64,000 bases of DNA from an uncultured archaeon (GTDB lineage Archaea; Altiarchaeota; Altiarchaeia; IMC4; QMZM01). Within the stretch, counting starts at the first letter, position 1; each line of letters starts with the position of its first letter. Location: positions 5,246 to 69,245 of the forward strand of contig CAZJVE010000002.1 in NCBI GenBank assembly GCA_964549685.1, given 5' to 3'. The position numbers and the translations under genes were made by a program. This document shows, piece by piece, positions 12,927 to 47,865 of the stretch. The notes beneath the pieces are model-generated. The model had not been told where the DNA came from. It worked only from the letters and a program-made list of their open reading frames with translations, and ran no database searches.

Positions 12927-13392
12927 GGCTCAGGGCGGCTTTTACCGCCTCTTTAGGCTTCGCCCGGTGGATTCCCTCCGCAACCCTGTCAACAGAATCA
13001 GAAATTCCCCCGCTGCCCTCAACGACAACAACGGGCTTCCCGTGGTTCAGCGCCAGCGCAACCTCCGACAGCGTGCCCACCCCGCCAGAGACTGCGATGA
13101 CCGCATCGGCACATGAGACGACGATGGAGTTCCTGGCATAGCCCATCCCCGTTGTTATTATAACATCAATATAAGAATTTGCATCCTCCTTGTCCAGCCC
13201 CGGCAGGATTCCCACCGTGGTTCCGCCCGCCTCCTTCGCGCCCCTGCACGCGGCCTCCATCACTCCCCCGCGGCCGCCGCAGATTAGAACACAGCCCTCC
13301 TTCGCAACGTCCCTGCCGATTCCCGCTGCAATATCTCTAACAGTCTCAGATAACTCGCTGTCACTACCCACCACTGCTATCTGCCTCATCAT
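12919..13392 (-). CDS. TIGR00725/SLOG (LOG-like Rossmann) family protein
   Basis: Contains IAVVGS...ICGGRGGVMEAACRGAKEAGGTTVGILPG...AVSGGVGTLSE. Confidence 0.8.
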   Translation of the reverse strand: MMRQIAVVGSDSELSETVRDIAAGIGRDVAKEGCVLICGGRGGVMEAACRGAKEAGGTTVGILPGLDKEDANSYIDVIITTGMGYARNSIVVSCADAVIAVSGGVGTLSEVALALNHGKPVVVVEGSGGISDSVDRVAEGIHRAKPKEAVKAALSLI

Positions 13393-27293: not shown

Positions 27294-27623
27294 TCAGGCC
27301 TTCTTCTCCAGTTTCTCCAATCTGTGCTCCAGGTCCCTGATTCTCCAGCCGCTGACCTCCTTACCCTTTCCTCTCCTGAGGCTCTTTATCTCCTCATCGC
27401 CCTTCTTGAGCAGCTCCTGGTCAATCCCAAGAACCCTCTCAATATCGTCTAGCTCCCCCCTGTATCTAAACAGAACGCCGCATATCATCATGACGCATGA
27501 AAGCACGAGCAGGACGGCGCTGAAGCTGCTAATTCCCGTGTAAAAGACGTCCTTCAGCGACATTATTGCAAGAACTATCCCACTGCCTACAAAGACAATG
27601 GCAATGAAGAGGTTTGTTTTCAT
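27294..27623 (-). CDS. small two-TM protein with charged C-terminal helix
   Basis: 109 aa with two hydrophobic helices, then ELLKKGDEEIKSLRRGKGK...LEHRLEKLEKKA. A 4-nt ATGA overlap joins it to the upstream coiled-coil gene. Confidence 0.5.
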   Translation of the reverse strand: MKTNLFIAIVFVGSGIVLAIMSLKDVFYTGISSFSAVLLVLSCVMMICGVLFRYRGELDDIERVLGIDQELLKKGDEEIKSLRRGKGKEVSGWRIRDLEHRLEKLEKKA

Positions 27624-28864
27624 TCTATACGTGTTTGCTCTCCTCCACCCTTTTGTTTAGGCTCCTCCGCCTTCCTATCCTCCTGATGGGGTTTCTCTAC
27701 TACTCTATCCTCCTGCTTAGGCTCCTCCGCCTTCCTATCTTCATGACCTGGTTCCTCTACCGTCTTCTCTTCCTGCTTAGGTTCCTCACCCTTCTCATCA
27801 TCCTGTTTGGCTTCCTCCACCACTCTACTCTCCTGCTTAGGTTCCTCAGCCCTCCCATCCCCCTGACTAGGGCCCTCCACTTTCTCGATAACGCTATTGT
27901 AAAGGTCCTCCAGCTCCTTGTCGAACCTATCCGCTGTTATGAACCTGCCCCCTCCGACACCATCCAGCTTCTCCTGCATGGATTCCAGGCTGGACAGCGA
28001 GCTGTTCGCATTGCTAATCATGGAATCGAGTTCTTTCTTCTTCCCCTCCATCTCCGATGCAATGTTCTTGATGGAGGTCACACTTGCTTCAAACTCGCCC
28101 TTTATCTTGCTTATATCGTCTTTGGTTACGAGCTCGTCGAAATGCACCTTCATCTTGCTCGCGTCCTTCATGAATACGTTGAATGATTTCTCGAGGGACT
28201 CGAATTTCTCGGACATCTTCAGGAACTCGTTGAATCTCTTCTGCATGTTGACATAGAGCTCCTCGACCTTGTCTGCGTGCTTCTCCACACTCAATTCAAC
28301 CCTTTTGATATTCGCAAGCTCCTCTTTAATCTCCTCATTCAACTGTATGACTGCTTCCGTGCCCCGGAACGCGGCCGTTTCCGCCTTCAGGGTCTTTATC
28401 TCGTCCGCTATATGGCCCATCAACTCCTCATCGGCCTTCAGCTTTGCCTCAAGCTTTGTGACCTTGGCATCCTCCTTTTCCAGGTCCATCCTCAGCTTTT
28501 CTGGCTGCACCGAGCCTACCAAGTCAACTGCCCTGCTGGATTCCATCCTCATCCTGTTCATCCCCTTTTCCATCTCGACGCCGCTCCTGCGCAAGTCGCC
28601 AATCTCCTCGCTCATCCTCTGGAACCTCTGCTCGTTCAGCTGCCTTATCTCCCTGAACGACTGCACCTCGGCCTTCAGCTTATCGATGTCCATACCTATC
28701 TTTTTCGTGACATCGTCGGGGTCTCTCGGGATTATCTCCCTCTGGACCGGTTCTGCTGCCTCCGGCTCCTTGCTGCCGCGCACGTTCTCTTCGATGATTT
28801 TGTCTATGTCTGCCTGCTCATCAGCACCTTTGCCTCTTTTCAATATGTTGGGTAATCCTACCAT
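27620..28864 (-). CDS. 414-aa coiled-coil protein with C-terminal EEPKQE tandem repeats
   Basis: Heptad-rich E/K/L sequence runs throughout. The C-terminal ~80 aa contain five or more degenerate 13-14-aa units ((D)RKAEEPKQE(D)RVVE), visible as ~40-nt DNA repeats at 27630..27870. Confidence 0.6.
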   Translation of the reverse strand: MVGLPNILKRGKGADEQADIDKIIEENVRGSKEPEAAEPVQREIIPRDPDDVTKKIGMDIDKLKAEVQSFREIRQLNEQRFQRMSEEIGDLRRSGVEMEKGMNRMRMESSRAVDLVGSVQPEKLRMDLEKEDAKVTKLEAKLKADEELMGHIADEIKTLKAETAAFRGTEAVIQLNEEIKEELANIKRVELSVEKHADKVEELYVNMQKRFNEFLKMSEKFESLEKSFNVFMKDASKMKVHFDELVTKDDISKIKGEFEASVTSIKNIASEMEGKKKELDSMISNANSSLSSLESMQEKLDGVGGGRFITADRFDKELEDLYNSVIEKVEGPSQGDGRAEEPKQESRVVEEAKQDDEKGEEPKQEEKTVEEPGHEDRKAEEPKQEDRVVEKPHQEDRKAEEPKQKGGGEQTRIE

Positions 28865-31557: not shown

Positions 31558-33054
31558 ATGATGAAGAGATATGTTATTCTTGTTCTGGTCTTGGTAGTTG
31601 TGATGAGTGGATGTGTTGAAAAACAGATTCCAGCAACTACAACTACGGTCGTAAGCACCACCACAATTCAGCCTAAGGAAGTGATTGTCCTTACGGATAA
31701 GTCTGAGTACGTGCAGGGAGAAGTAGTAGATGTTGCAGTTACAAATTACTTAGATGAGAGCGTATGGTATCGGAAATGGTGTGGGATGTTGTCATTTTGG
31801 TTTTTAGAAAAAGATGTAGGTGGTGAGTGGGAAGGAGTTCAGATAAGAGGGCCTTGCTTGTCTGCAACATCTCCACTATTTATAGAATTGGAGTCGGGGG
31901 GCAGCATTAGCAGTAGTTGGGATATGTACTGGTACGTGGGAGGATGGAACTACAGCAAGCCTGTTGAGAACCTTGGTCTAGCTGAACCAGGCACATACAG
32001 ATTTGGTTTTGTCTATCATCCCAACTGCAGTAAAGTGCAAGATTATTATGACTGTAAGTATCCGCTGAATCCAATAACGGTTTACTCGAATGAATTTACT
32101 GTCAAAGAGGGTCAGAATATAACCACAACCAGCACAACCACGACTGTAATCACCTATCCACGGGGAGTTGAGTTTGAGGCATTATCCCAGAGCCTCAGAT
32201 GCAATAGAGCTAGAGGGTCATCAAGAGATGTGATAAAAACTGAAGAGGAACTAAAAGAGATGTGGGATTCTGATTTAGGTGAACTTCCAAAGGTAAATTT
32301 TTCCGATGAGATGGTGCTTGCGGTGTTTTACGGCAGTACAAGCGGAAAGGGTATTGAAATAACTGAAATTCTGGAGATGGAGGACAAGATCGTAGTGATT
32401 TTTGATATAAGATACTGGATTGATAATACGAGACGTCGTTCGAACCCGTGCTACATTGTAAGCATAGGTAGAACGGATAAACCAATCGTGTTCGTTGAGA
32501 ATAGGAAATACTGCACAGGGGATGGGGATTGCGTACTGGGCCCAAGAGAATCGGCTTCGCTCTACTTCTATGAGTGGTGCGATCAAAGCGAGTGCATCAA
32601 CAACGAAGGATACGGGGAGGAAAAAACAAAATATGCTAACAAGACGGACTGCAAGGTCCAGCATGCACCCGTATCCTGCACATGTGTCGATAGCACATGC
32701 ACTGCAATATCTGAGGACGAAATCTCGGAGTATCTGGTCAAAAAATACGAACCATATCCCTGGCACGGCATGCCGCAGGTTTTTTCTGATGAGATTGTTA
32801 ACGAGACGTTGAGTCAGAATCAGGAGCTGGTGAACTTTATAATCGATAGATTTAACACCACAAATGATTTTGATATATTTGAAAAAATAAGTCAGTTTAA
32901 GAGTATTACACTAACAAAAACTGATTTCGGTTATAATTTCACTTTTAGTAGCGGGGGCTGCGTCGTTACCACATACGAAGGAAAGATAAGGATTGACGCA
33001 GGTCAGATAATTGATGAGGTAACGAGTGAGGTTGATAGATCTATTCCTTGCTGA
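31558..33054 (+). CDS. secreted lipobox protein, Cys-rich, with PrcB-C-like segment; function unknown
   Basis: Begins MMKRYVILVLVLVVVMSGC followed by a Thr-rich linker. The central segment FSDEMVLAVFYGSTSGKGIEITEI resembles PrcB C-terminal domains. Codon usage is visibly more AT-rich than in the neighbouring genes. Confidence 0.6.
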   Translation: MMKRYVILVLVLVVVMSGCVEKQIPATTTTVVSTTTIQPKEVIVLTDKSEYVQGEVVDVAVTNYLDESVWYRKWCGMLSFWFLEKDVGGEWEGVQIRGPCLSATSPLFIELESGGSISSSWDMYWYVGGWNYSKPVENLGLAEPGTYRFGFVYHPNCSKVQDYYDCKYPLNPITVYSNEFTVKEGQNITTTSTTTTVITYPRGVEFEALSQSLRCNRARGSSRDVIKTEEELKEMWDSDLGELPKVNFSDEMVLAVFYGSTSGKGIEITEILEMEDKIVVIFDIRYWIDNTRRRSNPCYIVSIGRTDKPIVFVENRKYCTGDGDCVLGPRESASLYFYEWCDQSECINNEGYGEEKTKYANKTDCKVQHAPVSCTCVDSTCTAISEDEISEYLVKKYEPYPWHGMPQVFSDEIVNETLSQNQELVNFIIDRFNTTNDFDIFEKISQFKSITLTKTDFGYNFTFSSGGCVVTTYEGKIRIDAGQIIDEVTSEVDRSIPC

Positions 33055-33062
33055 GGTAGAGT

Positions 33063-33076
33063 GAGTTAGGCACTAC
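33063..33076. repeat. direct repeat GAGTTAGGCACTAC, copy 2
   Basis: See copy 1. Confidence 0.7.
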
Positions 33077-33110
33077 ATCTGTGTGCTATCAGTTACTCCT
33101 GCAAAACTTG

Positions 33111-33137
33111 GATTGCGACGAGGTTCTTTAAATCAGG
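33111..33137. repeat. 27-nt direct repeat GATTGCGACGAGGTTCTnnAAATCAGG, copy 1
   Basis: 25 of 27 positions are identical to 33885..33911. This copy overlaps the stop codon of the Met-rich gene. A weaker third match, CGAGGTTCTGAAAT, is at 31470..31483. Confidence 0.7.
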
Positions 33138-33666
33138 CCTTAATCTTTTTAGCTATTTCAGCTCTGAGCTCTTCTTTTTCTTCTTTCGATATTCCAGCAC
33201 ATCCCTCTTTGCTGACTAATGAATCTACCATGTTAACTGCAAAATCAATTCGTTTTTCTTTTGGCATGTAAGGAAACATAGCATCAAGGCAATGCGGCAT
33301 CATCTTCATCATCATATTTGGCATCAGCATACCTCCATCAACATTATCCTTACCCATCATTTTCATCATTGCCGGCATCATTTTTTCCATGAATTTCGGC
33401 AGTGCATCCATTAGTTTAGGAATTGCTTCACTTAGTGAAGTAACTCCCTTCAATATTTCAGGAAACAATTTTTTAAGAATATTAAACACATCATCTAAAC
33501 TGATGTTTTTCATCATCCCACTCATCATCTGTGGCATAACCTCTGCCATATCGACGCCTTCCATCATCTTTGGCATCATCTTAAGCATCATATCCTCTTT
33601 CTCCTCTTTACTCATTCTAGAAATCATCATATCCATCATCTTATCCATTATCCCCATTTTACCCAC
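33133..33666 (-). CDS. extremely methionine-rich protein (38 Met in 177 aa)
   Basis: The sequence contains MGKMGIMDKMMDMMISRM...MMPKMM...MPQMMSGMM...KMMPAMMKMMG...MLMPNMMMKMMPHC. A strong SD (GGAGGTG) lies 7 nt upstream of the ATG. It has its own TATA-like element and a tandem 9-mer, CTATCTTAA x2, at 33686..33703. Confidence 0.65.
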   Translation of the reverse strand: MGKMGIMDKMMDMMISRMSKEEKEDMMLKMMPKMMEGVDMAEVMPQMMSGMMKNISLDDVFNILKKLFPEILKGVTSLSEAIPKLMDALPKFMEKMMPAMMKMMGKDNVDGGMLMPNMMMKMMPHCLDAMFPYMPKEKRIDFAVNMVDSLVSKEGCAGISKEEKEELRAEIAKKIKA

Positions 33667-33731
33667 CTCCTCAAAATTATCTATCCTATCTTAACTATCT
33701 TAACGATACTATATTAATCATTTTTCTGACG

Positions 33732-34706
33732 TTAACCCTCTCTCCTTTCCCTGTGTCTGGGCTCGAGTTCGTTCTCCTTGGCGAACTGGTCCAGTATTCC
33801 TCCCACCTTCACTTTCCTTGTGAGGTAGTCGGCAATCCTGACGGGGTACAGCTGCGGGTGGAGGAGGTCGTCCTCCCTAGCCCAGATTGCGACGAGGTTC
33901 TCCAAATCAGGGACGAAATCGGGGTATGCGAACTCCCACTTTACTGTGAGGGGGCTGCTCTTTCTGGAGGGAACATAGCTCAGCGCCTTCGAGGGCAGTT
34001 TCACATAGCAAATATTGACGCCGTCCTGCTCCTGCACCACGAACTCGTTCTCCTCGAGGGCGAGGTCGAACACCGCGATGTCCGTCAGCTTGGTTCCAAG
34101 GGACCTGGCGATTCCTACTGATGCAGAGTCCTCGACCATGCCGACGAGCCTTCCGGAATCCCTCAGCTTGTTGTAGAGGTTCATCAGCGTTTCACTGCCC
34201 TTGATTCTCTTGAGAACGGTGGAGATGCTGCCGTCGAGGAGGAGGTAGTCTGCATTGGAATCCATCTCCTTGAAGGAGTCCAACAATGATTTGTATTCAT
34301 ATGCGACTCTAATAATATTTGAATTCTCCTCAATTCCATCATGGTTTTCAAATTTTCCGATGTCGAGAGTTGAGTTGTACTGCAGGTCCCTGTAAAGTAT
34401 CTTCCTGCCGCCGACCAGCGGGTCTTCATGCATCGAGTTGTCGAAGATTCCGAAAAGGCTCACGGCATGAATCGCCCAGAGGGCTGCGAACCTCATCTCC
34501 TTGGACACAATGGATGAGTCGACTGCCAGAATCCTGGTCTCCCCTTCCTGAGCCCCGGGGTTCAGCTTCTTTATCGCGAACTGCGCCGATACTGCATCCC
34601 TCAGCTCTGCAGAATCAACATCTATGTGAATGGACTCTTTCAGTTTCAGAAACTTGTCCTCCAGAATCTCAGCATTAAAATCAAAATCAGGTGTTAGTTC
34701 CTTCAT
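33732..34706 (-). CDS. NurA-like nuclease
   Basis: The motifs RILAVDSS (N-terminal catalytic Asp) and YLLLDGSI are typical of the NurA domain. It is 324 aa and overlaps the upstream HerA-type ATPase gene by 20 nt. Confidence 0.65.
   Translation of the reverse strand: MKELTPDFDFNAEILEDKFLKLKESIHIDVDSAELRDAVSAQFAIKKLNPGAQEGETRILAVDSSIVSKEMRFAALWAIHAVSLFGIFDNSMHEDPLVGGRKILYRDLQYNSTLDIGKFENHDGIEENSNIIRVAYEYKSLLDSFKEMDSNADYLLLDGSISTVLKRIKGSETLMNLYNKLRDSGRLVGMVEDSASVGIARSLGTKLTDIAVFDLALEENEFVVQEQDGVNICYVKLPSKALSYVPSRKSSPLTVKWEFAYPDFVPDLENLVAIWAREDDLLHPQLYPVRIADYLTRKVKVGGILDQFAKENELEPRHRERREG
33885..33911. repeat. 27-nt direct repeat, copy 2 (inside the NurA-like coding region)
   Basis: On the minus strand it encodes PDLENLVAIW of the NurA-like protein. 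See copy 1 at 33111..33137. Confidence 0.7.
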
Positions 34707-37700
34707 TCTTTCCGCTCTCAGCCTCCTTCAGCTCCTTGTCTATCGCCTCTCTCCTGGCCCTCAGATCGTCCATCTTCTTCCACTCTTCTTCCATCTGCGT
34801 GAAGATCTCCCAGCCCTCGCCCTTACCTTCCAGCTCGCCGATTTTCTTCTTCTCCGCCTCTATCTCCTGCTCTACCCTCTGTTTTTTCATTCTCAACTCC
34901 TCTATATTCGCTGCAGGGACCTCAACTCCCTCTGGCTTGGCCTCTTCTGGTTTCGGTGCAGTGCTAGGAGCGGCCTCTTTAACCGGAGCTGCCGTGGTTG
35001 TCGATGGCGCAGACACCTCTGACTCCAGACCAGATCTGATTTTTGCCAGCTCCTTCTCCAGGGCCTCCCTCTCTGCCCTCATATCGTCCATCATCTTCCA
35101 CTCCTGCTCCATCTTCTGGAAGTCATCCCAGCCGACGTCTCCCTTCTTCGGTTTCTTATCCCCCAACTCCTCTTTCTTCCCCTCGAGCTCCGTTATCTTC
35201 ACCTCCCGCTCGATTATGCCCTTCCACTTGTCCTTCATTTCCTTCAGCTCGTCATGGAGCTTATCCTTATCCTCTACGAGACCCTTTCTCTCCTCCCTCA
35301 CCTTGATCTTACTTTGCTTCCTCTCGGCATCGAGCCTCTTCTGCAGCTCTTCGTCGCTCTTCTTCAGGCCCTCCCTCTTGGTGGCGTCTTCTTCCAGTGC
35401 AACCTGGCCAAGAATATCCTTCCTCTTCGCGATTCCGCTCTGGATTTCACCGACCATCTTCTGCGCTACCTTCTCCTCCTTGGCGCCTATCTCCTTGTCC
35501 ATCTGAAGAATCATCTCCTTGTCCCTGCTTATCATCTCTCTGCGCTCTCCAATCATCTTCTCCGCCTTCTTCAGGGCGTCCTCCTTTTTCTGTGCATCTT
35601 CCTTTAACCTCTGCTCCTCCTCCACCTGCTTCTTCTTCTCCTGTTCAATCTCTGTCGTCTTCATATCGCTGAGTTCCTTCAGCTTCTCCTCCCCGATTCT
35701 CAGCTTCTCCTTCTCCTTGAGGGCAACCTCCTCCCTGAGTATCTTTATCTTCTTGTGCTTCTTCAGGAGCTCCAGAACCTGGGCCCTGCTCTTGAGCTTT
35801 ATCTCCTCGGCCTCGAGCTCACCTATTATCTTCTCTTCGTCCTCCCTCAGTTTCCTCTTCTCCTCCTCTATCTTCCTCATGGTCTCTTCCTGCTTCTGCC
35901 TGAGACTCGTCTCCCTATCACCTATCCTCTTCTCCTCTTTGTCCAGGATTGCAGAGAGTTCCCTCTCGTACGCCTTTATCTCTTCATCCCTCTTTGCGTC
36001 CCACTCGGATTTTATGGCCCGCTCCTCCTCGGAAATCTTGCCTGTCTTCAGCCTCTCAACATAATCCTCTATCCTCTCTGCGAGAGAATCGATGTAGAGG
36101 TCGACAATGCCGAACGAGCCGCCCTTTATGTTGTCTATGGCAAGCTTCATCTCCAACTCTATGTCGAAGATGTCCAGCTCCGCCTTCCTGAGGGTTTCGA
36201 GCTTAGGCATGAATCCATCAATCTTTTCGTTATACTTCGCATACTGTCCAAGCTTTTCGTTGGACATGCTGTTCGCGTTGTGAAGGGCCGGCCTGAAGCT
36301 TACAAAGTAGGGGTTGCCCTTGTTGTATTCAGGATTCTGCAGCATGCCCTCCCCGACATTGGCCTTGACCACTGACTGGTAGATGTAGCCTCCATACTTC
36401 AGGTTTATCCTGTCCAGATCCTCCTTGTACCGGGTCTGCATCTGAATCTCCGTCCCTATGTTTGCCTTTATCTGGCCTATGAAGTCCTTTAGAACTTGTG
36501 ATATGAGAATCACGCCGATTCCGAAGCGCCTGAATTCCCTCACGGCCTTCTCTATCTGGACGAAGCCCTTGCCGACCCCGCCGAACTTCGGCAGAATCCT
36601 GTGAATCTCGTCAAACACCAGGATTACCTTGAGCTTTGGGCTGTCACCGAACTTTGCGCTGAATATGTCCTCTATAGCATTCGATATGAACACCTCCATG
36701 TCGGGATTGTTCAGCTCCCTCATGTAGAAGACGCTTATCTCTCCGGGATGTATGTGGTGCTTCAGGTCTATCCTCTGGTTGGCGTCTTTTATCGCATAAA
36801 CGTTGCCCTTGAAGGCCTTCGCGTCTGCATTCTTCATCTTGTAGTTGCCATACCTCTTGAACATCTCATCATCCTTGTTTGGCTCCAGGAAGCCGGTCCA
36901 CTGGGCGGTGGGGTCGAACACTATAACGGAGACGTCGCTCTTCATCAGCGCCTCCTCGACGAGCACCTGGGCAGAGTGGGTCTTTCCGCAGCCAGTTGTT
37001 CCTGCCATTAGGGTATGTGATGCAAGCGAATCCAGATAGAGATAAGCGTCGGCGTTCATCTCCGCTATCTTCCCCATGTATCCTGATTTCGGACCCTTGT
37101 GCGGAAGCGCGTCAAATTTGATTGACTCCAGATACCTCTTCCTCCTTTCACGCCCCTTTTTGTACCTCCCGTAAAAGGACATGAGGATTCCAAGCGCGAT
37201 GAGCAGGAAGAACCCCAGTACTATCCTGGCGCCCGTAATCTCTGCGATAATCGGGTCAAGCCTGTCAATAAGTGACCTTCTGATAGTAAGCTTCTCGACG
37301 TCGCTCGCCTTCGCTGTTTTGTTCCCCTCCCCCGTATAATAGAGAACCCCAGTAATCTCATATTCCGTGTCCACAACCTCCCAGGGGATTATCAGTTCAG
37401 TGCTTGTTTCAAGCACGACGTTCTCCGGCAGTATGATTCCGCTTTCCTTCTTGACCACAATGGTGCCCATTGCTGGGTCCTTCATTATCACTTCCAGGAG
37501 GGTTTCCGTCCTTCTCTGGACCAGGTTGGATATCTTGGACCTGACGACGACGGTGCCCCCTGGTTTGTTCTCAATACTGTCCAGCCCTATATCCAGGTCC
37601 AGGGAGACCTCCGTCACAACCTCGAGGACCTCGAGTTTTAGCGGTATCGTCCTTACCTTTCCGTTAACGTTTATGAGTACGTCTCCCTCATAGAGCCCTG

Positions 37701-38016
37701 GGTTGGAATTCTTGTTTATGTAGCCCCTTACTCTCAGATATCCCGTCTCATTGGGTGCTATCCTGACGTAACCCTTCTCTATCTCAGGGACTATATTCTT
37801 AATCCCCTGGCTTATGGAAGAAACCTCGACAAGTATCCCTTCATCGTCGTTGTTCGTTATGGTCAGCAGACTGTCGACAAAATCCCCCGCATATTCCCTT
37901 ACAGATATATTGCTGGGCGTTATCTCCACCGACTGCCCGGATACAGAGGCAATACTAACCAGAAGTAGGAGCGCAACCAAAAATCCTGTGTTTAATCTGT
38001 TATTGTGAATATGCAT
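34687..38016 (-). CDS. membrane-anchored HerA/FtsK-superfamily (DUF87-type) ATPase with extracytoplasmic N-domain and ~470-aa C-terminal coiled coil
   Basis: A signal peptide (LVALLLLVSIASVSG) leads into a ~260-aa beta-rich ectodomain and then a TM helix (IVLGFFLLIALGILMSF). Walker A is MAGTTGCGKTHSAQ and Walker B is KVILVFDEIHR. A long E/K-rich coiled coil follows, ending in a duplicated W..F..ME.EWK.MDD.RA.REA motif. Confidence 0.8.
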   Translation of the reverse strand: MHIHNNRLNTGFLVALLLLVSIASVSGQSVEITPSNISVREYAGDFVDSLLTITNNDDEGILVEVSSISQGIKNIVPEIEKGYVRIAPNETGYLRVRGYINKNSNPGLYEGDVLINVNGKVRTIPLKLEVLEVVTEVSLDLDIGLDSIENKPGGTVVVRSKISNLVQRRTETLLEVIMKDPAMGTIVVKKESGIILPENVVLETSTELIIPWEVVDTEYEITGVLYYTGEGNKTAKASDVEKLTIRRSLIDRLDPIIAEITGARIVLGFFLLIALGILMSFYGRYKKGRERRKRYLESIKFDALPHKGPKSGYMGKIAEMNADAYLYLDSLASHTLMAGTTGCGKTHSAQVLVEEALMKSDVSVIVFDPTAQWTGFLEPNKDDEMFKRYGNYKMKNADAKAFKGNVYAIKDANQRIDLKHHIHPGEISVFYMRELNNPDMEVFISNAIEDIFSAKFGDSPKLKVILVFDEIHRILPKFGGVGKGFVQIEKAVREFRRFGIGVILISQVLKDFIGQIKANIGTEIQMQTRYKEDLDRINLKYGGYIYQSVVKANVGEGMLQNPEYNKGNPYFVSFRPALHNANSMSNEKLGQYAKYNEKIDGFMPKLETLRKAELDIFDIELEMKLAIDNIKGGSFGIVDLYIDSLAERIEDYVERLKTGKISEEERAIKSEWDAKRDEEIKAYERELSAILDKEEKRIGDRETSLRQKQEETMRKIEEEKRKLREDEEKIIGELEAEEIKLKSRAQVLELLKKHKKIKILREEVALKEKEKLRIGEEKLKELSDMKTTEIEQEKKKQVEEEQRLKEDAQKKEDALKKAEKMIGERREMISRDKEMILQMDKEIGAKEEKVAQKMVGEIQSGIAKRKDILGQVALEEDATKREGLKKSDEELQKRLDAERKQSKIKVREERKGLVEDKDKLHDELKEMKDKWKGIIEREVKITELEGKKEELGDKKPKKGDVGWDDFQKMEQEWKMMDDMRAEREALEKELAKIRSGLESEVSAPSTTTAAPVKEAAPSTAPKPEEAKPEGVEVPAANIEELRMKKQRVEQEIEAEKKKIGELEGKGEGWEIFTQMEEEWKKMDDLRARREAIDKELKEAESGKNEGTNT

Positions 38017-38056
38017 TGTAGCCTGATTGGTTGAATTCCGCCACGGAAGTCATGCG

Positions 38057-38782
38057 TTATTCCTTTGCACCATCTTCCTTCAATAGAGTGAATGGAACCT
38101 CTTTCGAGGATATCGAAACTCCCTCAGATGTGATGGTGACCGGCCTTATGTCCGAAACTATCTTCGTACCCCGTATTTTCACAACCCAGATACATCGCTC
38201 ATTATTGGCTCTATATCTCGACCAGAACATTATTATGAGGCCATCGGATAGAAAGTGCTCTGCCCCGTATCTCAGCTTCAGAAAGCTCTCCGAGAGCTCC
38301 GCGGTCATTAAAGTCGTGCACTTGTTCTTCCTCATCATCTCAAGGAATCTCAGCATATGGATTCTCCTGGAGGCTTCCTCCTTGAAGAGGTAGTTGAAGA
38401 GAGTTACTGAATCGAGGACCATCCTGCTGGCCTGGGTCTCCTTTATTACGTCTCTTAGAATTCCAAAGTCCATGCCCAGGTCCATATCGGTTCCTTCAAA
38501 AATCTCTCTCCCGAGAATGGCTATCTTCCCGGCATCCTCGTACTCCCTTACGTTCCACCCAAATCCTGCCGCATAGTTTTCCACGTCCTCTACGGTATCC
38601 TCTACCGTTATGTAAACGCCTGGGTCATCATACTTGGCAACTCCGTTGTAGATGTACTGCATTGCAAGATTACTCTTTCCTATCCCTGGAGGCCCAGAAA
38701 TAACGGTAGTGCTGCCCTTGGGCAGACCCCCGTCCATCATATCGTCGAGCCCGGGAATTCCGGTCTTTAGCTTTTCTACCAT
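38057..38782 (-). CDS. KaiC/RadA-like single-domain RecA-superfamily ATPase
   Basis: Starts KTGIPGLDDMMDGGLPKGSTTVISGPPGIGKS (Walker A). It is 241 aa, typical of archaeal KaiC-like ATPases. Confidence 0.85.
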   Translation of the reverse strand: MVEKLKTGIPGLDDMMDGGLPKGSTTVISGPPGIGKSNLAMQYIYNGVAKYDDPGVYITVEDTVEDVENYAAGFGWNVREYEDAGKIAILGREIFEGTDMDLGMDFGILRDVIKETQASRMVLDSVTLFNYLFKEEASRRIHMLRFLEMMRKNKCTTLMTAELSESFLKLRYGAEHFLSDGLIIMFWSRYRANNERCIWVVKIRGTKIVSDIRPVTITSEGVSISSKEVPFTLLKEDGAKE

Positions 38783-38820
38783 TTTAACACCGTATTATTT
38801 TATTAACAGGATACTTTATA

Positions 38821-39702
38821 TCATATCTCCGTCCTGAGGACGTTCATCTCTCTCTTCAGGAGATGGAGTTGCTGGGTATCTATCGTTGAAGGGTCCAGGG
38901 GGACTATGAGCCTTGAATTGCTCATGGAGATGCTGTCCTTCAGGGACTGGACGAACTGCAGAATCTCCTTGTAGCCGTTCTGGACTATTAAATATTCAAG
39001 GCCGTCGAGCATTATAACGCTTTCACCGACCTCCTTCATGAATTCCTTCATCGTGTGGCTCAATTCCAGCAGGTCCGTTGGCTCGATGTTCTTCTCCTCC
39101 GTCTTCTCCCTTGTCAGCCAGATTATCGGCGTTCTCTCGAGCTCGTACACCTGCCTTATCTGCGCCGGGTTCTGTCTCGTTATGTAAAGGCCGCTGATTC
39201 CGTGGGTTACTAAATCGACAAAAATTTCATTGCTCTTGATTGGCTTTTCCTCATTGACCATGTAGGTCTTGCCCTCGTCCAGCCTGTGCCTCATCTTCGC
39301 ATAGCTTCTCCTCTCCGCTACTGCCTTTATGGGCGCGAACTCATACTTCTTCCCCTCCTCCATCGGCGAGTAGAGGAGATAGGCCCCCACGGTCATCGAA
39401 ATGGCCACAATGGTCCTGCCGACCACGCTCATAAGCTGGATTACGGGGTCGCTGCTGAAAATCAGATAGATGCTCGATATGTTAAACAGCAGGATTCCAA
39501 GCACTCCAATAAAGAGCCAGGTCCATGCCCTGGATCCCTTCGCGCCCTTGGTGTACAGCTTCCTGTAGAGCTTAATCCAGATAACGACGGCAAGAAGCGA
39601 GATTACCACTGCGAATATGTTAGTCAGAAATTCCGTGGTGGGGAAGACCTCCCCCATAACAGATATCACCTTCCCTAAAACAGGCATCGTTGTCCCATCC
39701 AT
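38821..39702 (-). CDS. membrane protein with C-terminal DUF835 domain
   Basis: Four N-terminal TM helices. The C-terminal domain has GLYITRQNP...IIWLT...VIMLDGLEYLIVQNGYKEILQFVQSLKD...LIVPLDP, which matches the DUF835 pattern. Confidence 0.75.
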   Translation of the reverse strand: MDGTTMPVLGKVISVMGEVFPTTEFLTNIFAVVISLLAVVIWIKLYRKLYTKGAKGSRAWTWLFIGVLGILLFNISSIYLIFSSDPVIQLMSVVGRTIVAISMTVGAYLLYSPMEEGKKYEFAPIKAVAERRSYAKMRHRLDEGKTYMVNEEKPIKSNEIFVDLVTHGISGLYITRQNPAQIRQVYELERTPIIWLTREKTEEKNIEPTDLLELSHTMKEFMKEVGESVIMLDGLEYLIVQNGYKEILQFVQSLKDSISMSNSRLIVPLDPSTIDTQQLHLLKREMNVLRTEI

Positions 39703-39759
39703 GGGGCACCTCTTTATTAAGCTTAATAGTAAGTAATATTACATCAGACCCCTATAAAA

Positions 39760-41185: not shown

Positions 41186-43237
41186 ATGAGTTCTATCGGG
41201 CCAAAAATTCTCTGGATATCGGTTCTGCTGATTCTGACCGCCTCTGCCACTACAGCCGAATGCGTAACCGACGGCGTTAACGACAACTGTCTCGCCGTTC
41301 TGGAATACGGGGACGGGAGCCTTGAGATAGACCCCGACAACCCTGAGAGCATATACAAAGCCCTGAATCTCGTGAGCCCGGACTCACGCTCGCTGGACGA
41401 ATTCCTCGGCACCGAGGAAGGCGAAGAGATAATAGCCCTGCTATTCGACCAGCCCCGCGGCCCCTGGAAGTACGGGAACTTTCTCCTGGACCCGAGGGGC
41501 GCAGACCTCGACCTCTATGCCGAGAAACTCTCTGGACTCATAAGCGAAGAGAACAAAGAGAAGTTCGAGGAATCGCCCTACGGCTACATCGTGAAGCTTC
41601 GGGAGGAACCGCTGAGTTCGTACGGAAAAATATCGACAGCTGAATTGAATTCTCACAGGGATAATATTCTCGATTCCCACAAAATTGCACTGAATTACAT
41701 AAATAATAATTTCCCCGACTCACGGGTAAGGCGTGAATTCACCAATGTCTTCAACGGCATCTCCCTGGAAATCTCCGCCGATGAGGCGAAGCAGCTGAAG
41801 GGCCTCGACGTAGTCGAGGAAATCTATCCGATAAAGAGGATTCAAATCTCTCTGACCGAGAGCGTTTCCATGATTAATGCGGATGATGCATGGGGCCTCC
41901 TTGATGACCTTGGAAAGAACGTTACCGGCAAGGGCATCCTCATAGCAATAGTCGACACGGGGGTCGATTACACCCATACCGATTTCGGCGGCTGCCCCGC
42001 CGACTCCTACCTCTCTTGGGACTCCTGCCCCAAGGTCGCGGGGGGCTACGACTTCGTGAGTGATTTTGCCGACCCCATGGATGATGCAGGCCATGGAACG
42101 CACTGCGCCGGGATAGCGCTCTCCAACGGCTCCCTGAAAGGCGTTGCCCCGGATGCAAGGCTGCTGGCCTACAAGGTCCTTGACTCCGGAGGTGGAGGAT
42201 ATGACGACGACATCATAGCGGGAATAGAGCGGGCGGTCAATGAATCGGCCGATGTGATAAGCCTCAGTCTCGGGGGGAGCGGAAACCCCGACGATGCCCT
42301 GTCACAGGCCGTTGATAATGCTGCCAATGCCGGAGCGGTCGTAGTCGTTGCGGCGGGCAACAGCGGCCCGGATGCCAGAACCGTCGCATCTCCAGCCTGT
42401 GCCAGGAAGGCAATAACAATCGGGGCGACCTACAAGGAGAGCGATAATACCTCAACATCCGAGCTGTACCTCTTGAACGGCACTGCAGCCGAGGAGATAG
42501 ACTCACAACCGCTCGAAGAATCCGCACTAACGCCCGAGGGCGGGATAATGGCGGAGCTCCTCTTCGCATCCCTCGGCTATGCAGGAAATTTCACCGGCCA
42601 GAATTTCACGGGAAAGATTGCGCTGATTGGAAGAGGCGAATTCACCTTCCAGGCTAAGGTTCAGAATGCCTATGATGCCGGAGCCATCGGAACAATAATC
42701 TACAATAACGAACTCGGGAATTTCCTCGGAACCCTCGTAAACCAGTCGGAGATTCCGGCGGTCTCCATATCCCTGAGCGATGGCGCGCGCCTTCTGGGCC
42801 TTGTAAATAGCAGCACAGTGACCGTGAACCTGAGCGTTCTCAGCTACGAGGAATTAATAGCAGATTTCAGCTCGAGAGGCCCTGCATACATCTACAACAA
42901 GCCCGACCTGGTGGCTCCGGGAGCACTCATCTGCGCCTCGCAGTGGGACGACGTCTATTCGGACAGCCCCTGCTACGATTCAGAGCATGCCGCAATCTCG
43001 GGCACCTCCATGGCGACACCGCACGTTGCAGGAGCAGCAGCACTAATCCTGCAGAAGCATACTGGCTGGAGCCCTGACCATGTCAAGTACGCACTGCTGA
43101 CTACTGCCAGGGACTATGGCTATGATGTCAATGCGCAGGGGGCGGGCCTCATCGACGCCTACAAGGCGGTCAACCTCACAAACAAACCACCCATTGCAAT
43201 CATCTCGAACATCACAGGACTCGAATACAGGACCTAG
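41186..43237 (+). CDS. secreted subtilisin-like serine protease (S8) with PA domain
   Basis: The catalytic triad contexts are VAIVDTGVDYTH (Asp), HGTHCAGI (His) and SGTSMATPHVAGAAAL (Ser). There is an N-terminal signal peptide and an inserted PA-like domain (GKIALIGRGEFTF). Confidence 0.93.
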   Translation: MSSIGPKILWISVLLILTASATTAECVTDGVNDNCLAVLEYGDGSLEIDPDNPESIYKALNLVSPDSRSLDEFLGTEEGEEIIALLFDQPRGPWKYGNFLLDPRGADLDLYAEKLSGLISEENKEKFEESPYGYIVKLREEPLSSYGKISTAELNSHRDNILDSHKIALNYINNNFPDSRVRREFTNVFNGISLEISADEAKQLKGLDVVEEIYPIKRIQISLTESVSMINADDAWGLLDDLGKNVTGKGILIAIVDTGVDYTHTDFGGCPADSYLSWDSCPKVAGGYDFVSDFADPMDDAGHGTHCAGIALSNGSLKGVAPDARLLAYKVLDSGGGGYDDDIIAGIERAVNESADVISLSLGGSGNPDDALSQAVDNAANAGAVVVVAAGNSGPDARTVASPACARKAITIGATYKESDNTSTSELYLLNGTAAEEIDSQPLEESALTPEGGIMAELLFASLGYAGNFTGQNFTGKIALIGRGEFTFQAKVQNAYDAGAIGTIIYNNELGNFLGTLVNQSEIPAVSISLSDGARLLGLVNSSTVTVNLSVLSYEELIADFSSRGPAYIYNKPDLVAPGALICASQWDDVYSDSPCYDSEHAAISGTSMATPHVAGAAALILQKHTGWSPDHVKYALLTTARDYGYDVNAQGAGLIDAYKAVNLTNKPPIAIISNITGLEYRT

Positions 43238-43238
43238 A

Positions 43239-45647
43239 ATGAATAGGACAATAATCTACATGATGCTGGCAGCCATGGTATTCTTTTCCGGCTGCGTTGT
43301 AGAAGTGGAGCAGAACGGCTACATCAATGGAACCATCGAGATAACCGGCTATGCACTTGGCTCGAACCTGTCCAGCTACACGGTCGAGATTGGAGAGAGC
43401 TTTAATGCCACCCAGTGGTCCACGACCGGGGTGGAATTAATCAGCAGCGGCACCTCAGAGATAGCCAATGGTACTCTGGCAAGATGGGACACCACTGCCG
43501 TGAGGGACGGGCAGTACACCATAAGGCTGACGGTCACGGACACGAACAACGTCAGCAGCCAGGACCTGGTCTATGTTAATGTTGACAACGTCTTCATAGA
43601 CTCGCCGGAGAACGGCTCCCCCGTCAGCAACGCAGACCTCATTGATATTAAGGGCAAGGCCGTCGGCCTGACTTTTACCAGCTACTCAATCGACTATAGC
43701 CCCGACAACGAAAATTGGTCCGCTGCCGGAATATCCCTCGCAAATAACGGGACAGAAAAGGTGGATAACGACACCCTTGCCACGTGGAATACATCTTACG
43801 CAGAAAATTCCGGCAGGCATACCCTGCGGCTCAATGTATACGGCCCCGGAGGTTTGATAAACTCCGACAACAGTACCGTAATACTGGCAAACTATCAGGC
43901 GGGCTGGCCGCAGGCAACGGGCGGGAACATATACTCCTCCCCTGCAGTCGGGGACCTGGACAACGACGGCGACCTGGAGATTGTTGTTGGCTCCCTTGAT
44001 GGCTATGTCTATGCCTGGCACCACAACGGCACCATGGTGGCTGGATGGTATCAGATAACTCAGAACTATGTCCGGTCCTCCCCGACACTCTCGGACCTGG
44101 ACAACGACGGCGATTTAGAGGTCGTTGTTGGTTCTTATGACGACGAGGTCTATGCATGGCACCACGACGCCAACCCGGTCCAGGGCTGGTCAAACGATAT
44201 TAGTGATTACTCGGATATGAAAACCTCCCCTGCAATATCTGACCTTGACGGCGACGGAGCCAAGGAGATTGTCGTAGGGGCAGGCACCACCGTATACGCC
44301 TGGCACTCCAACGGCTCGGTAGTCGAAAGCGAAGTAGTGGGGGACACGCATGAATATTCCCTCGAATCCCAGCACCCCTACGATAATTATCTGGACAAGA
44401 CATGGACCATAACCATGCCCGGCTTCACCTCAATAGCTGTTCACTTCACTAAGATAGACGTCGAGCAGGGCTTCGATTATCTATATGTCAAGGACGCGTC
44501 AGGAAAAACAGTCAATACATACACAGGATTATATGAGGACGTCTGGAGCACCTCGGTTGATGGAGATACGATAAACATAACTCTGTATTCGGACTACATG
44601 ATAACCGACTGGGGCTTTGAGATTGACAGAGTTCTGAACGGCTCGGTGGGCGGTTGGCCCCGGGAGGTGGGGTACGATATCTTTTCTTCCCCGGCGCTGG
44701 GCGACCTGGATGGCGACGGAACCCTTGAAGTAGTGGTTGGCTCATATGAAGGGAGGCTCCATGCGTGGCACCACGACGGAACCCTGGTTGATGGATGGCC
44801 CTTGGAGCTCGGGGACCAGTATTCATATATAGAAGGTTCCCCTGCACTCGCAGACATTGACATGGACGGTGACCTCGAGATAATAGTGGGCCTGAATTCC
44901 TATACCAATGAAATTCACGCTCTCCATCATTCCGGCCTGGCCGTTGACGGATGGCCGCAGAATATTTCATACTACTTCGGCTCCTCCCCTGCGGTCGGGG
45001 ACCTGAATGGAGACGGAACCCCTGAAATAGCCATCGGCTCAGGTACAGGGGTGGCAATATTCCGGAACAACGGCTCCCTGCTGGCCGGCTGGCCCCAGGA
45101 CACCGGGGATTACATCTACTCCTCCCCGGCAATAGCAGACCTGGACTGCGACGGCGACCTTGAGATACTCATTGGCTCCATTGACGGCAGTCTCCATGCC
45201 TGGCACCACAACGGCTCCCTGGTGGATGGATGGCCGAAGGAGACAGGGGATTACATCTACTCCTCTCCAGCAGTGGCAGACCTCGACGGAGATGGCGACC
45301 TCGAGGTCATAGTCGGCTCCTATGACGACAAGATTCATATCTGGGACGAATCAGGGAGCTGCTCTCCTTATCAGATAGAATGGGACAAGTTCAGTTACAA
45401 CGAGATGAATACCGGCTGGTATGAGGGAGATGTTACCAATACGACAGCGACGACTTCCACAACAAGCACAACCACCACCTCTACCAGCACAACCCTACCC
45501 AGCTGCGAGACAACCGGTGACATATATCCCTGCGACGGGGAGGTGACTCTCGCAGAGGTTCTGGATACGATAAATAGCTGGTATAATGGCCTGACAGACA
45601 TTGGCGATGTAATAATGGCGATTAATAATTGGGCGAATTCAGGGTAA
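43239..45647 (+). CDS. FG-GAP/VCBS-repeat beta-propeller surface protein with inserted CUB-like domain and C-terminal Thr linker plus conserved module
   Basis: The start is set at the ATG at 43239 (MNRTIIYMMLAAMVFFSGC, lipobox), 1 nt after the protease stop. It has 10 or more repeats of SSPA.GDLD.DGDLE..VGS.DG..YAWHHNG. The insert HPYDNYLDKTWTITMPGF..IAVHF...GFDYLYVKD is CUB-like. Confidence 0.85.
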   Translation: MNRTIIYMMLAAMVFFSGCVVEVEQNGYINGTIEITGYALGSNLSSYTVEIGESFNATQWSTTGVELISSGTSEIANGTLARWDTTAVRDGQYTIRLTVTDTNNVSSQDLVYVNVDNVFIDSPENGSPVSNADLIDIKGKAVGLTFTSYSIDYSPDNENWSAAGISLANNGTEKVDNDTLATWNTSYAENSGRHTLRLNVYGPGGLINSDNSTVILANYQAGWPQATGGNIYSSPAVGDLDNDGDLEIVVGSLDGYVYAWHHNGTMVAGWYQITQNYVRSSPTLSDLDNDGDLEVVVGSYDDEVYAWHHDANPVQGWSNDISDYSDMKTSPAISDLDGDGAKEIVVGAGTTVYAWHSNGSVVESEVVGDTHEYSLESQHPYDNYLDKTWTITMPGFTSIAVHFTKIDVEQGFDYLYVKDASGKTVNTYTGLYEDVWSTSVDGDTINITLYSDYMITDWGFEIDRVLNGSVGGWPREVGYDIFSSPALGDLDGDGTLEVVVGSYEGRLHAWHHDGTLVDGWPLELGDQYSYIEGSPALADIDMDGDLEIIVGLNSYTNEIHALHHSGLAVDGWPQNISYYFGSSPAVGDLNGDGTPEIAIGSGTGVAIFRNNGSLLAGWPQDTGDYIYSSPAIADLDCDGDLEILIGSIDGSLHAWHHNGSLVDGWPKETGDYIYSSPAVADLDGDGDLEVIVGSYDDKIHIWDESGSCSPYQIEWDKFSYNEMNTGWYEGDVTNTTATTSTTSTTTTSTSTTLPSCETTGDIYPCDGEVTLAEVLDTINSWYNGLTDIGDVIMAINNWANSG

Positions 45648-47000
45648 ATTGTCCTTAACGCACTCGAACTCCCTCAGCTCATCCAGAATCAGCTCCCTTA
45701 TCTCGTCCAGCTTCTCCTCGGTCTTTGCCTCGAATCTGAGAATCAGCGCCGGCTCCGTATTGGAAGCCCGGACCAGGCCCCAGCCGTGCCTGGTCTGCAC
45801 CCTGGCTCCATCGACCGTAACGACGTCGTACTTGTCCTGAAACTTCTTCTTGACGTCCTCGACGATTTCGAACTTCTTCTCCTCAGGGCATGGCACCCTT
45901 ATCTCCGGGGTCGAATGGTATTCGGGCATATTCGCAATGGTCTCAGAGAGTTTTTCCTTGCTCTTCGACAGCAGCTCCGCCATTCTGGCAGAGGCAAAGA
46001 TTCCATCATCGTAGCCGTAGTAGTTATCGGCAAAGAAGAAATGCCCTGACATCTCTCCCGCCAGGAGGGCGCCCTCCTCACGCATCTTCTTCTTTATGAA
46101 TGAGTGCCCGGTCCTGTACATTATGGGTGTTCCGCCCTTCTCCCGAATATCCTCAGCCAATGCCATGGAGCACTTGACCTCGAAGATGATTTTGGCATGG
46201 TTCTCTTTCAGGACGTCCCTTGCAAACAGCATCAGAATCTGGTCGCCTCTCACTATGTTGCCCTTGTCATCAACTATTCCAAGCCGGTCCGCATCTCCGT
46301 CATAGGCAATCCCGAAGTCGGCCCGTTCTATCTTGACTCTCCTTATCAGCTCCTTGAGAAATTCATCCACTGTTGGATCTGGGTGGTGGCTGGGAAAATT
46401 CCCGTCCGGCCTCCAGTTCAGCTTCGTGACCCTGCAGCCCAGCTCCTCGAAGAGCTTCCCGGAAATCTCTCCTGCCGTGCCATTGCCGGAGTCTATGACT
46501 ACTGCAATCTTCTTCTTGAGATGAATCCTGTCCTTGACGAATTTTATGTAGTCATCGATTACATTCTCCTCGGTGACCTTCCCCTCCCCGGTTACAAAAG
46601 CCCCGGCCTCGACCATGTTCTTCAGCTTCTGAATATCCTCGCCATAGAGGGTCTTCTCCCCCTTACATAGCTTGAAGCCGTTGTATTCCGGCGCATTGTG
46701 AGAGCCGGTAATCATAATGCCGCCGTCCTTTCCGTAGTGGCTGATGGCGAAATAGAGAACAGGGGTCGGGACCATTCCTATGTCCGTTACATTGCAGCCG
46801 GAATCTATCAGCCCCTTAATCAGGGAATCCCTCAGTGCGGGAGAACTTAGCCTGCAGTCTCTTCCAACGACGATATCGCCCCCCTCGACATAGGTTCCAA
46901 AGGCCTTTCCGATATTCTTTGCAATATCCTCGGTCAAATCCTTGCCGGCTATTCCCCTGATGTCATAGGCTCGAAAGATGCTCATTCTATATCCTTCCAC
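45639..47000 (-). CDS. phosphoglucomutase/phosphomannomutase family (phosphohexomutase)
   Basis: Starts FRAYDIRGI. The active-site loop is TGSHNAPEYNGFK and the Mg site is DGDADR. Confidence 0.92.
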   Translation of the reverse strand: MEGYRMSIFRAYDIRGIAGKDLTEDIAKNIGKAFGTYVEGGDIVVGRDCRLSSPALRDSLIKGLIDSGCNVTDIGMVPTPVLYFAISHYGKDGGIMITGSHNAPEYNGFKLCKGEKTLYGEDIQKLKNMVEAGAFVTGEGKVTEENVIDDYIKFVKDRIHLKKKIAVVIDSGNGTAGEISGKLFEELGCRVTKLNWRPDGNFPSHHPDPTVDEFLKELIRRVKIERADFGIAYDGDADRLGIVDDKGNIVRGDQILMLFARDVLKENHAKIIFEVKCSMALAEDIREKGGTPIMYRTGHSFIKKKMREEGALLAGEMSGHFFFADNYYGYDDGIFASARMAELLSKSKEKLSETIANMPEYHSTPEIRVPCPEEKKFEIVEDVKKKFQDKYDVVTVDGARVQTRHGWGLVRASNTEPALILRFEAKTEEKLDEIRELILDELREFECVKDNLP

Positions 47001-47815: not shown

Positions 47816-47865
47816 TTTGAATATATTGGTTGGAATATTTATATCTACTTTTATAATTAAGTTAC

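Follow-up and report, generated by a model that had tools for sequence, protein, structure and literature searches.

Organisation of the operon

The locus described here is chromosomal and belongs to an Altiarchaeota archaeon, as is also indicated by the source names of close homologues (Candidatus Altiarchaeota); it lies within a 64,000-nt stretch of contig CAZJVE010000002.1 (assembly GCA_964549685.1), hereafter the window. Four co-directional minus-strand genes occupy positions 33732–39702 and encode, in order, a 293-aa DUF835 protein (38821–39702; Pfam DUF835 and hydropathy), a 241-aa single-domain KaiC-like ATPase (38057–38782; Pfam KaiC, PF06745), a 1109-aa membrane-anchored HerA-fold ATPase (34687–38016; Pfam DUF87/HerA_C, AlphaFold2 and Foldseek) and a 324-aa NurA-family nuclease (33732–34706; Pfam NurA, AlphaFold2 and Foldseek). 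The third protein is referred to as mHerA. The DUF835 and KaiC genes are separated by 38 nt and the KaiC and mHerA genes by 40 nt, while the start of the NurA gene overlaps the mHerA stop by 20 nt. This layout, taken from the open reading frame (ORF) coordinates, agreed exactly with an original prediction made from the sequence of the window. The four protein identities proposed there were also borne out, with Pfam matches for all four and the quoted motifs present.

Upstream of the DUF835 gene, inspection of a 57-nt divergent intergenic region (39703–39759) revealed A/T-rich boxes and a GAGGTG Shine–Dalgarno-like site; this region is probably the operon promoter. The flanks consist of syntenic housekeeping genes (DAP decarboxylase, PGM, tRNA deacylase and ThiI). 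An integrated plasmid or virus was ruled out, as no relatives were found in 2.9 million viral contigs or in phage records, and the sole plasmid matches were DUF87 genes on haloarchaeal megaplasmids (22%–29% identical). Neither Mre11, Rad50 nor a canonical or second HerA was recognised among the window ORFs examined (ca. 60 listed, 16 profile-scanned), consistent with the earlier statement that the window lacks Mre11–Rad50. Since the four-gene arrangement recurs in related genomes, a chance origin was excluded. The related loci compared with the window are labelled L001, L002 and so on.

Topology and ATPase core of mHerA

Hydropathy analysis and AlphaFold2 (AF2) modelling agreed on the predicted succession of signal peptide, ectodomain and single transmembrane (TM) helix ahead of the ATPase. 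The signal peptide spans aa 1–27 (37936–38016, minus strand, as for all features of the operon), with a hydrophobic signal-like segment at aa 7–32 in the hydropathy profile. It is followed by two immunoglobulin (Ig)-like ectodomains (aa 30–245; 37282–37929; AF2), the TM helix (aa 262–285; 37162–37233; hydropathy and AF2) and the HerA-fold ATPase (aa 311–580; 36277–37086; Pfam, AF2 and Foldseek). The AF2 model of residues 1–660, built on 34 homologues (pLDDT 85), comprised beta-sandwiches at 30–131 and 139–245, a long helix at 262–298, the ATPase and further helices up to residue 658. In Foldseek comparisons with the PDB, the ectodomains resembled RbmA and WxLIP-type tandems of Ig/fibronectin type III domains. 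The sequence RYKKGRERRKR directly follows the TM helix and fits the positive-inside rule. The model and hydropathy profile together show mHerA as a predicted type-I membrane protein, with Ig-like domains outside and a helical tail in the cytoplasm. The ATPase core begins only ca. 25 residues past the TM helix; therefore, its ring is expected on the inner membrane face.

The Pfam matches of the core (DUF87, 37.6 bits against a cut-off of 23.2; HerA_C, 36.7 bits against 22; both E ca. 3e-9) span mostly the Walker A region. In the structural comparison, the best PDB match was Sulfolobus solfataricus HerA (4d2i, 3e-12). Other top matches included Thermococcus kodakarensis HerA in the HerA–NurA complex (9x1m) and the defence HerAs 8wiv, 8woc, 8xau and 8zit. 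No VirB4, TrwB or FtsK chain was present in the top 50 structural matches, and the profile matches to TrwB_AAD_bind, TraD, TraB and CedD were weak and confined to the P-loop (44–58 residues, 22–28 bits vs. cut-offs of 366–800). Membership in the VirB4, FtsK or type IV coupling protein groups was rejected on both grounds. Thus, the ATPase groups with HerA, as had been proposed, rather than with a conjugative VirB4/TrbE clade inside an integrated plasmid; the syntenic chromosomal locus points the same way. Walker A (GTTGCGKT, aa 339–346) and Walker B (VFDEIH, aa 467–472) are both present. Among the 34 homologues, G339, G344, K345, E470, H472, R473, R493 and R496 were invariant, D469 was nearly so, and the Walker B consensus was DE[VI]H. 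The HAS beta-barrel, a domain of ca. 100 aa that serves canonical HerA as the NurA docking platform, was missing from the AF2 model of mHerA, in which two short strands (311–317 and 323–327) lie between the TM helix and the P-loop strand.

The remaining ca. 520 residues (aa 586–1109; 34690–36261) form a helical E/K-rich tail. Residues 661–1109 contain 21% E and 17% K and had no Pfam match. A regular-expression search located two copies of a C-terminal motif, G-W-x-x-F-x-x-M-E-x-E-W-K-x-M-D-[DE]-[LM]-R-A; the copies begin at aa 963 and 1069 (34717–35130) and are joined by a P/A/E-rich linker. The same motif stands at the extreme C-terminus of mHerA in L001, L008, L009 and L010, and also ends a separate 498-aa coiled-coil protein in L002/L011. 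The downstream proteins of L002 (498 aa) and L003 (446 aa) were considered as divergent NurA proteins and rejected: each is a split-off coiled-coil tail carrying the same C-terminal motif.

NurA nuclease

The 324-aa protein matched Pfam NurA (PF09376; E = 3e-11, 43.7 bits against a cut-off of 21), and its RILAVDSS and YLLLDGSI motifs were confirmed. Its AF2 model, built on 17 homologues (pLDDT 89), had S. solfataricus NurA (2ygk) as the top Foldseek match in the PDB (E = 9.6e-11, TM-score 0.57); further matches were T. kodakarensis 9x1n, P. furiosus NurA, 3tal, TM1739 and, at rank 16, TdpB (8wfd). Residues D63, E137, D158, E192, D193, H283 and D293 were invariant in the 17 homologues (39%–85% identity). 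In the model, these residues sit on the secondary-structure elements expected of an RNase-H-like active site, that is, an Asp on beta-1, a Glu on helix A, an Asp after beta-4 and a His/Asp near the C-terminus. Fold and alignment together identify the protein as a predicted nuclease of the NurA fold whose acidic active site is conserved, in line with the earlier assignment of a NurA-like protein with catalytic acidic residues. The clade is small and divergent, with 30 homologues retrieved by a word-indexed search of 5.8 billion sequences. Searches of PDB sequences with this clade, by single sequence and by profile, gave no NurA match; only Pfam and the fold comparison detected NurA.

A 27-nt direct repeat (33111–33137 and 33885–33911; 25/27 identical) brackets the last 51 NurA codons and a Met-rich 177-aa gene (33133–33666), in a region of low GC content (42% over 32001–34000). 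A duplicated gene end at the NurA 3′ end was rejected because the similarity stops at the repeat, which may be the remnant of an insertion. The interval between NurA and tRNA deacylase varies among close relatives: in the window it holds a 498-aa secreted protein (31558–33054) and the Met-rich gene, and in L001 (10454–16584) a 656-aa SMC_N/AAA_23 ATPase and several small ORFs. Homology of the secreted protein in the window to the 498-aa protein of L002 was rejected.

KaiC-like ATPase and DUF835 protein

The KaiC-like protein matched Pfam KaiC over 223 aa (E = 1e-56) and has an intact Walker A (GPPGIGKS, aa 30–37), identifying it as a predicted active single-domain KaiC-like ATPase. It is not the clock KaiC, because it has a single domain and scored below all NCBIfam equivalog cut-offs, including those of its matches KaiC_arch_3 and thermo_KaiC_1. 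Weak profile matches to RadA, RadB, RecA and ArlH/FlaH were also obtained.

The first gene product of the operon matched DUF835 strongly (E = 8e-41, 139.5 bits). Three TM helices (aa ca. 27–110; 39373–39624; hydropathy) precede a cytoplasmic DUF835 domain (aa 153–286; 38845–39246). DUF835 is classed as an inactivated KaiC (iKaiC) domain (PMC5847659). In the alignment, it is collinear with the neighbouring KaiC, and EEKPIKSN stands at the position of the P-loop GPPGIGKS. Altogether, 78 orthologues were found, and the few with a source name came from Altiarchaeota. The protein had originally been described as a membrane sensor. Its membrane location held; being an inactivated KaiC domain on a 3-TM anchor, it is at best a putative sensor.

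Conservation and loss in two chromosomal slots

The prediction had left open whether the four genes occur together elsewhere; they do so in L001, L009 and L010, with mHerA identities of 79%, 72% and 47%, respectively, and in expanded form in L102. The mHerA and NurA genes overlap by 4 nt in L001 and L010. L008 (83%–85%) contains DUF835–KaiC–mHerA on a contig that ends before any downstream gene, and in L016 mHerA adjoins the KaiC orthologue. L102 (36%–40% identity) represents a seven-gene variant of co-directional, overlapping genes in the order DUF835, CBS-DUF835, mHerA, 201-aa protein, 187-aa protein, 310-aa protein and NurA. The 310-aa protein directly before NurA had weak DUF7504, DUF7090 and DUF835 matches and hence appears to be another iKaiC-like protein.

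Two slots were recognised in Altiarchaeota. Slot 1, between DAP decarboxylase and tRNA deacylase/ThiI, has four alternative contents: all four genes; DUF835–KaiC–mHerA with a coiled-coil protein (L002 and L003); NurA alone (L087, L089 and L092); or DUF835 alone (L105). Slot 2, beside a HAD hydrolase, contains directly adjacent or overlapping DUF835 and NurA genes (L098 and L101), the seven-gene operon (L102), or DUF835 and NurA genes 1.7 kb apart (L103). Adjacent or overlapping DUF835–NurA pairs were also found on the short contigs L094, L095 and L097, and a pair ca. 350 nt apart on L100. Gene order was invariant across the slots, with DUF835 first and NurA last. The simplest reading of this pattern is an ancestral DUF835–…–mHerA–…–NurA operon with repeated internal losses. 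Because the set has been differentially lost in two syntenic slots of related genomes, the system is most likely a dispensable accessory function rather than core repair.

In L003, an IS110-family transposase (6798–7817) splits KaiC from mHerA in an otherwise intact DUF835–KaiC–mHerA locus. A second Altiarchaeota mHerA paralogue of 1459 aa with a Glucodextran_B-like ectodomain was found in L004 (343–8709) and L013, where the genes behind it encode a ParA/MinD-like ATPase and a 999-aa coiled-coil protein rather than KaiC/DUF835. The metagenome-assembled genome (MAG) WALD01 holds both paralogues.

The wider mHerA family

A search with the mHerA ATPase core (E ≤ 1e-30) yielded 342 clusters at 50% identity, and core identity among the 150 best-scoring members was 42%–58%. 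The shortest member has 404 aa and the longest 6253 aa. Large members carry the ATPase close to their C-terminus, preceded by an ectodomain that can reach ca. 5,600 aa. More than 548 matches were found in GTDB representative genomes. The 79 genome loci retained were labelled mostly Woese-, Nano-, Pace-, Micr-, Nanohalo- and Altiarchaeota, with ca. 10 labelled ‘uncultured Methanosarcinales’ and a few Methanobacteriota/Euryarchaeota. Judged from its sequences, mHerA is a distinct family found mainly in DPANN-type archaeal MAGs. In DPANN, it is near-ubiquitous, and genomes often carry two paralogues.

Neighbouring genes were clustered across 84 mHerA loci. The commonest neighbour was a coiled-coil protein of ca. 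370 aa (53 of the 84 loci), which lay directly downstream and co-directional in 49 of these 53. It had no informative Pfam or PDB homology, as profile searches gave only generic coiled-coil matches. A 414-aa member of this family (family hidden Markov model, E = 5e-88) is encoded in the window at 27620–28864, 4.9 kb downstream of the operon on the same strand, an arrangement shared with L002 and L003; it is probably an associated component in a separate transcription unit. This gene is followed by a 109-aa membrane ORF (27294–27623, minus strand) with a 4-nt overlap.

KaiC-like ATPases occurred near mHerA in 18 of the 84 loci, often as two to three copies after a short-form mHerA; in 16 of the 79 genome loci, one to three KaiC-like genes adjoin mHerA. 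In L082 (527–12328; 3933 aa) and L026 (2–12871; at least 4289 aa), a huge N-terminal region and the mHerA core are fused to a C-terminal DUF835 domain, which was detected directly behind the core with E = 7e-22 and 1.5e-12, respectively. These predicted fusion proteins constitute a Rosetta-stone link between iKaiC and the motor. NurA, by comparison, was found only with Altiarchaeota-type mHerA members and is a lineage-restricted addition to a broader module of mHerA, KaiC and coiled-coil protein. The original proposal of a HerA–NurA module was partly supported: its components and their conservation held, and its role in DNA import or defence is putative.

Other recurrent neighbours in DPANN were giant PKD/CarboxypepD_reg surface proteins. 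A CopG/RHH protein was encoded upstream of mHerA in 21 of the 84 loci. In L005–L007 and 21 genome loci (DPANN), a CopG/RHH protein, a ca. 90-aa protein and a 1100–1200-aa PKD/CarboxypepD_reg surface protein typically precede mHerA, and in six DPANN loci a 197-aa protein with a weak ParB-like nuclease match lies downstream.

Comparison with known systems

The operon resembles the canonical archaeal HerA–NurA pair (S. solfataricus 4d2i/2ygk and T. kodakarensis 9x1l–n) in that one operon encodes both a RecA-like ATPase, with the HerA fold and a DE[AI]H Walker B, and a nuclease of the NurA fold that has kept the acidic residues of the active site, although the sequence similarity to the solved HerA and NurA is marginal. 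Canonical HerA is a soluble, cytoplasmic protein encoded in an mre11–rad50–nurA operon; here, nurA is adjacent and mre11 and rad50 are not. Unlike canonical HerA, mHerA lacks the HAS barrel and has a signal peptide, two Ig-like ectodomains, a TM helix and the long coiled-coil tail, and the KaiC/iKaiC genes upstream of the pair likewise have no counterpart in the canonical system.

HerA–effector defence systems (Sir2–HerA/Nezha, DUF4297–HerA and TdpAB) likewise couple a hexameric ATPase of the HerA type to an effector such as a nuclease, a coupling that is putative for the present operon. TdpB of TdpAB was a NurA-like structural match, and defence HerAs were among the best matches of the mHerA ATPase. 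These systems are, in contrast, soluble two-gene modules without membrane anchor, ectodomain or KaiC partners. The best PADLOC profile for the mHerA ATPase core was mad8 (4.5e-17, 60.5 bits, partial), followed by weak HerA matches; PADLOC models matched neither NurA, KaiC nor DUF835, and no known defence architecture was recognised.

A single-domain KaiC-like ATPase gene beside that of a membrane-associated, putatively hexameric ATPase of the FtsK–HerA superfamily is reminiscent of ArlH (FlaH)–ArlI. KaiC-like genes are associated with the ATPases of archaeal type IV pili (T4P) and archaella, regulation of membrane-bound hexameric ATPases by members of the KaiC family is known or predicted, and the classes of regulator predicted for archaeal T4P systems include KaiC-like and MinD-like ATPases (PMC4858521). 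The operon differs in that the partner ATPase is of the HerA clade rather than VirB11/PilB-type and in that pilin and ArlJ genes are missing from it.

FtsK/SpoIIIE, Streptomyces TraB, the coupling proteins of type IV secretion systems (T4SS; TrwB/TraD) and the Ced ATPases resemble mHerA in that an N-terminal anchor precedes a cytoplasmic P-loop pump, which belongs to the same superfamily. Unlike these polytopically anchored translocases, mHerA combines one TM helix with a folded ectodomain, and it is neither plasmid- nor virus-borne. The juxtaposition of a DUF835 domain lacking a P-loop and an active KaiC corresponds to the DUF835/iKaiC signalling domains of Makarova et al. 2017, as far as these are represented in PMC5847659. 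Unlike the iKaiC proteins described there, the present DUF835 is joined to a 3-TM anchor and has links to NurA and a HerA-type ATPase. No such link was found in the literature searched, to which Makarova et al. 2017 itself did not belong. Likewise, the full-text search returned no description of a module of membrane HerA, NurA and KaiC/DUF835, of which an earlier mention in two comparative-genomics papers is possible, nor of a HerA family with giant ectodomains.

Possible functions of the operon

We tentatively favour the reading that the operon encodes a membrane-tethered variant of HerA–NurA, controlled by KaiC/iKaiC and devoted as an accessory function to envelope-associated DNA handling, either uptake and processing or exclusion. 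According to this proposal, a hexamer of mHerA would thread DNA at the membrane, and NurA would degrade or resect the threaded DNA, which could be extracellular or derived from a partner cell and be either taken up and processed or excluded. By analogy with the action of ArlH on ArlI, the KaiC/iKaiC pair might gate the motor. Docking of NurA in the canonical manner appears impossible: mHerA has no HAS domain, and the corresponding ring face is turned to the membrane. More plausibly, NurA would be recruited by the tail motif of mHerA or by DUF835/iKaiC, which adjoins NurA in many genomes. Support for DNA handling comes from the structural relatives of mHerA, every characterised one of which acts on DNA, from the operon structure (the 20-nt overlap in the window and the 4-nt overlaps in L001 and L010) and from a three-way network of genomic association linking mHerA with KaiC, mHerA with DUF835, and DUF835 with NurA.

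Several observations weigh against this interpretation. NurA was found near mHerA in only 4 of 86 mHerA-anchored loci, and it stands alone in slot 1 of L087, L089 and L092. The HAS barrel is absent, and in the AF2 model the equivalent ring face is turned toward the membrane. A DNA channel is unlikely to arise from six single TM helices alone, and no channel protein was identified. Furthermore, the neighbours of mHerA in DPANN, namely giant surface proteins and the coiled-coil protein, would suit a motor for surface structures or protein secretion equally well.

As an alternative, mHerA could be such a motor, driving protein translocation or serving a structure on the cell surface, with the logic of the EssC/EccC ATPases of type VII secretion systems and of the KaiC-regulated archaellum/T4P ATPases; KaiC and iKaiC would regulate it, and NurA would be a separate KaiC-controlled effector or a mere syntenic neighbour. 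The fusion of the ATPase to ectodomains of up to ca. 5,600 aa, the giant PKD/CarboxypepD_reg and coiled-coil neighbours, the lack of NurA in most loci and the absence of the HAS docking domain all speak for this alternative, as does the ParA/MinD-like ATPase behind the second Altiarchaeota paralogue, MinD-like proteins being a predicted class of T4P regulators (PMC4858521). Nevertheless, we consider it rather unlikely: the folds most similar to the ATPase are those of HerAs that act on DNA, in four divergent genomes the NurA gene overlaps the mHerA stop codon, NurA also shares the operon in L102, DUF835 ties both proteins together through fusions to mHerA and adjacency to NurA, and a CopG/RHH DNA-binding protein accompanies mHerA in 21 loci.

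Antiviral or anti-plasmid defence, in which the ectodomain or the KaiC module would sense infection, mHerA would assemble on or load invading DNA and NurA would serve as the effector nuclease, is an analogy with the HerA–effector systems that we likewise regard as having a limited chance of being correct. It is suggested by the defence HerAs (8wiv, 8woc, 8xau and 8zit) among the structural neighbours, by TdpB among the NurA matches and by mad8 as the best PADLOC profile of the core. In addition, components are patchily present in the same slots, as expected of accessory genes; the region beside NurA is variable, with the SMC_N/AAA_23 gene in L001 and the low-GC insert with the 27-nt repeat in the window; and some DPANN mHerA loci adjoin DndB, AbiEii or toxin–antitoxin genes. 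In contrast, PADLOC recognised no known architecture and none of the three partner proteins. The chromosomal position is fixed across Altiarchaeota at 36%–100% identity, unlike that of typical defence islands, and mHerA is near-ubiquitous in DPANN, often as two paralogues per genome, and linked to surface proteins.

A more far-reaching and quite unlikely version of the DNA-handling proposal would make the whole mHerA family single-polypeptide ‘adhesin-translocases’. The ectodomain, ranging from two Ig-like domains to ca. 5,600 aa, would contact the environment, a partner or a host cell, while the HerA ring, rings of KaiC/iKaiC and the 3-TM DUF835 anchor would form a trans-envelope DNA conduit that feeds NurA in Altiarchaeota, amounting to a route of DNA uptake or exchange unrelated to Ced, ComEC and T4SS. 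KaiC and iKaiC are proteins of the RecA/DnaB superfamily.

Housekeeping end resection for double-strand-break repair by a membrane-tethered HerA–NurA, with the KaiC-like protein as a RadA-paralogue (aRadC-like) recombination mediator, is very doubtful. In its favour, resection is canonically the task of HerA and NurA, members of the clade bear the NCBI annotation ‘DNA double-strand break repair nuclease NurA’, the KaiC-like protein has weak RadA, RadB and RecA matches and the chromosomal position is stable. Against it, mHerA, KaiC or NurA has each been lost in related genomes, no Mre11/Rad50 lies nearby, the HAS domain is absent, and an ectodomain with a signal peptide has no rationale in cytosolic repair.

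HerA–NurA is viewed as a soluble module for end resection or defence. A membrane-bound form that has a domain outside the cell and partners of the KaiC type would widen the range of the pair to DNA handling at the envelope, and the operon would give the ‘signalling hub’ hypothesis for archaeal KaiC/iKaiC a concrete output. DPANN archaea are thought to rely on external nucleotides and host contact. If DNA is what the mHerA family moves, the family would be a candidate for the DNA-uptake or exchange machinery that is missing in these archaea; if its substrate is protein, it would represent a new archaeal secretion or adhesion motor.

Other genes in the window

Further ORFs of the window were recorded on both sides of the operon. 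At 13364–18379 (minus strand), an E/K-rich coiled-coil ORF of 1671 aa, strongly skewed in both GC and AT and with only a weak DUF1664 match, lies directly upstream of a SLOG (LDcluster4) gene (12919–13392, minus strand), with a 29-nt overlap. Just past the divergent neighbour of the operon, a cluster of secreted or surface proteins extends over 41186–50262 (plus strand). It includes an S8 subtilase with a PA domain (41186–43237) and two FG-GAP/PKD/CUB proteins (43116–45647 and 47866–50262). As the S8 ORF and the first FG-GAP ORF overlap in different frames, one of the two start calls is probably wrong.

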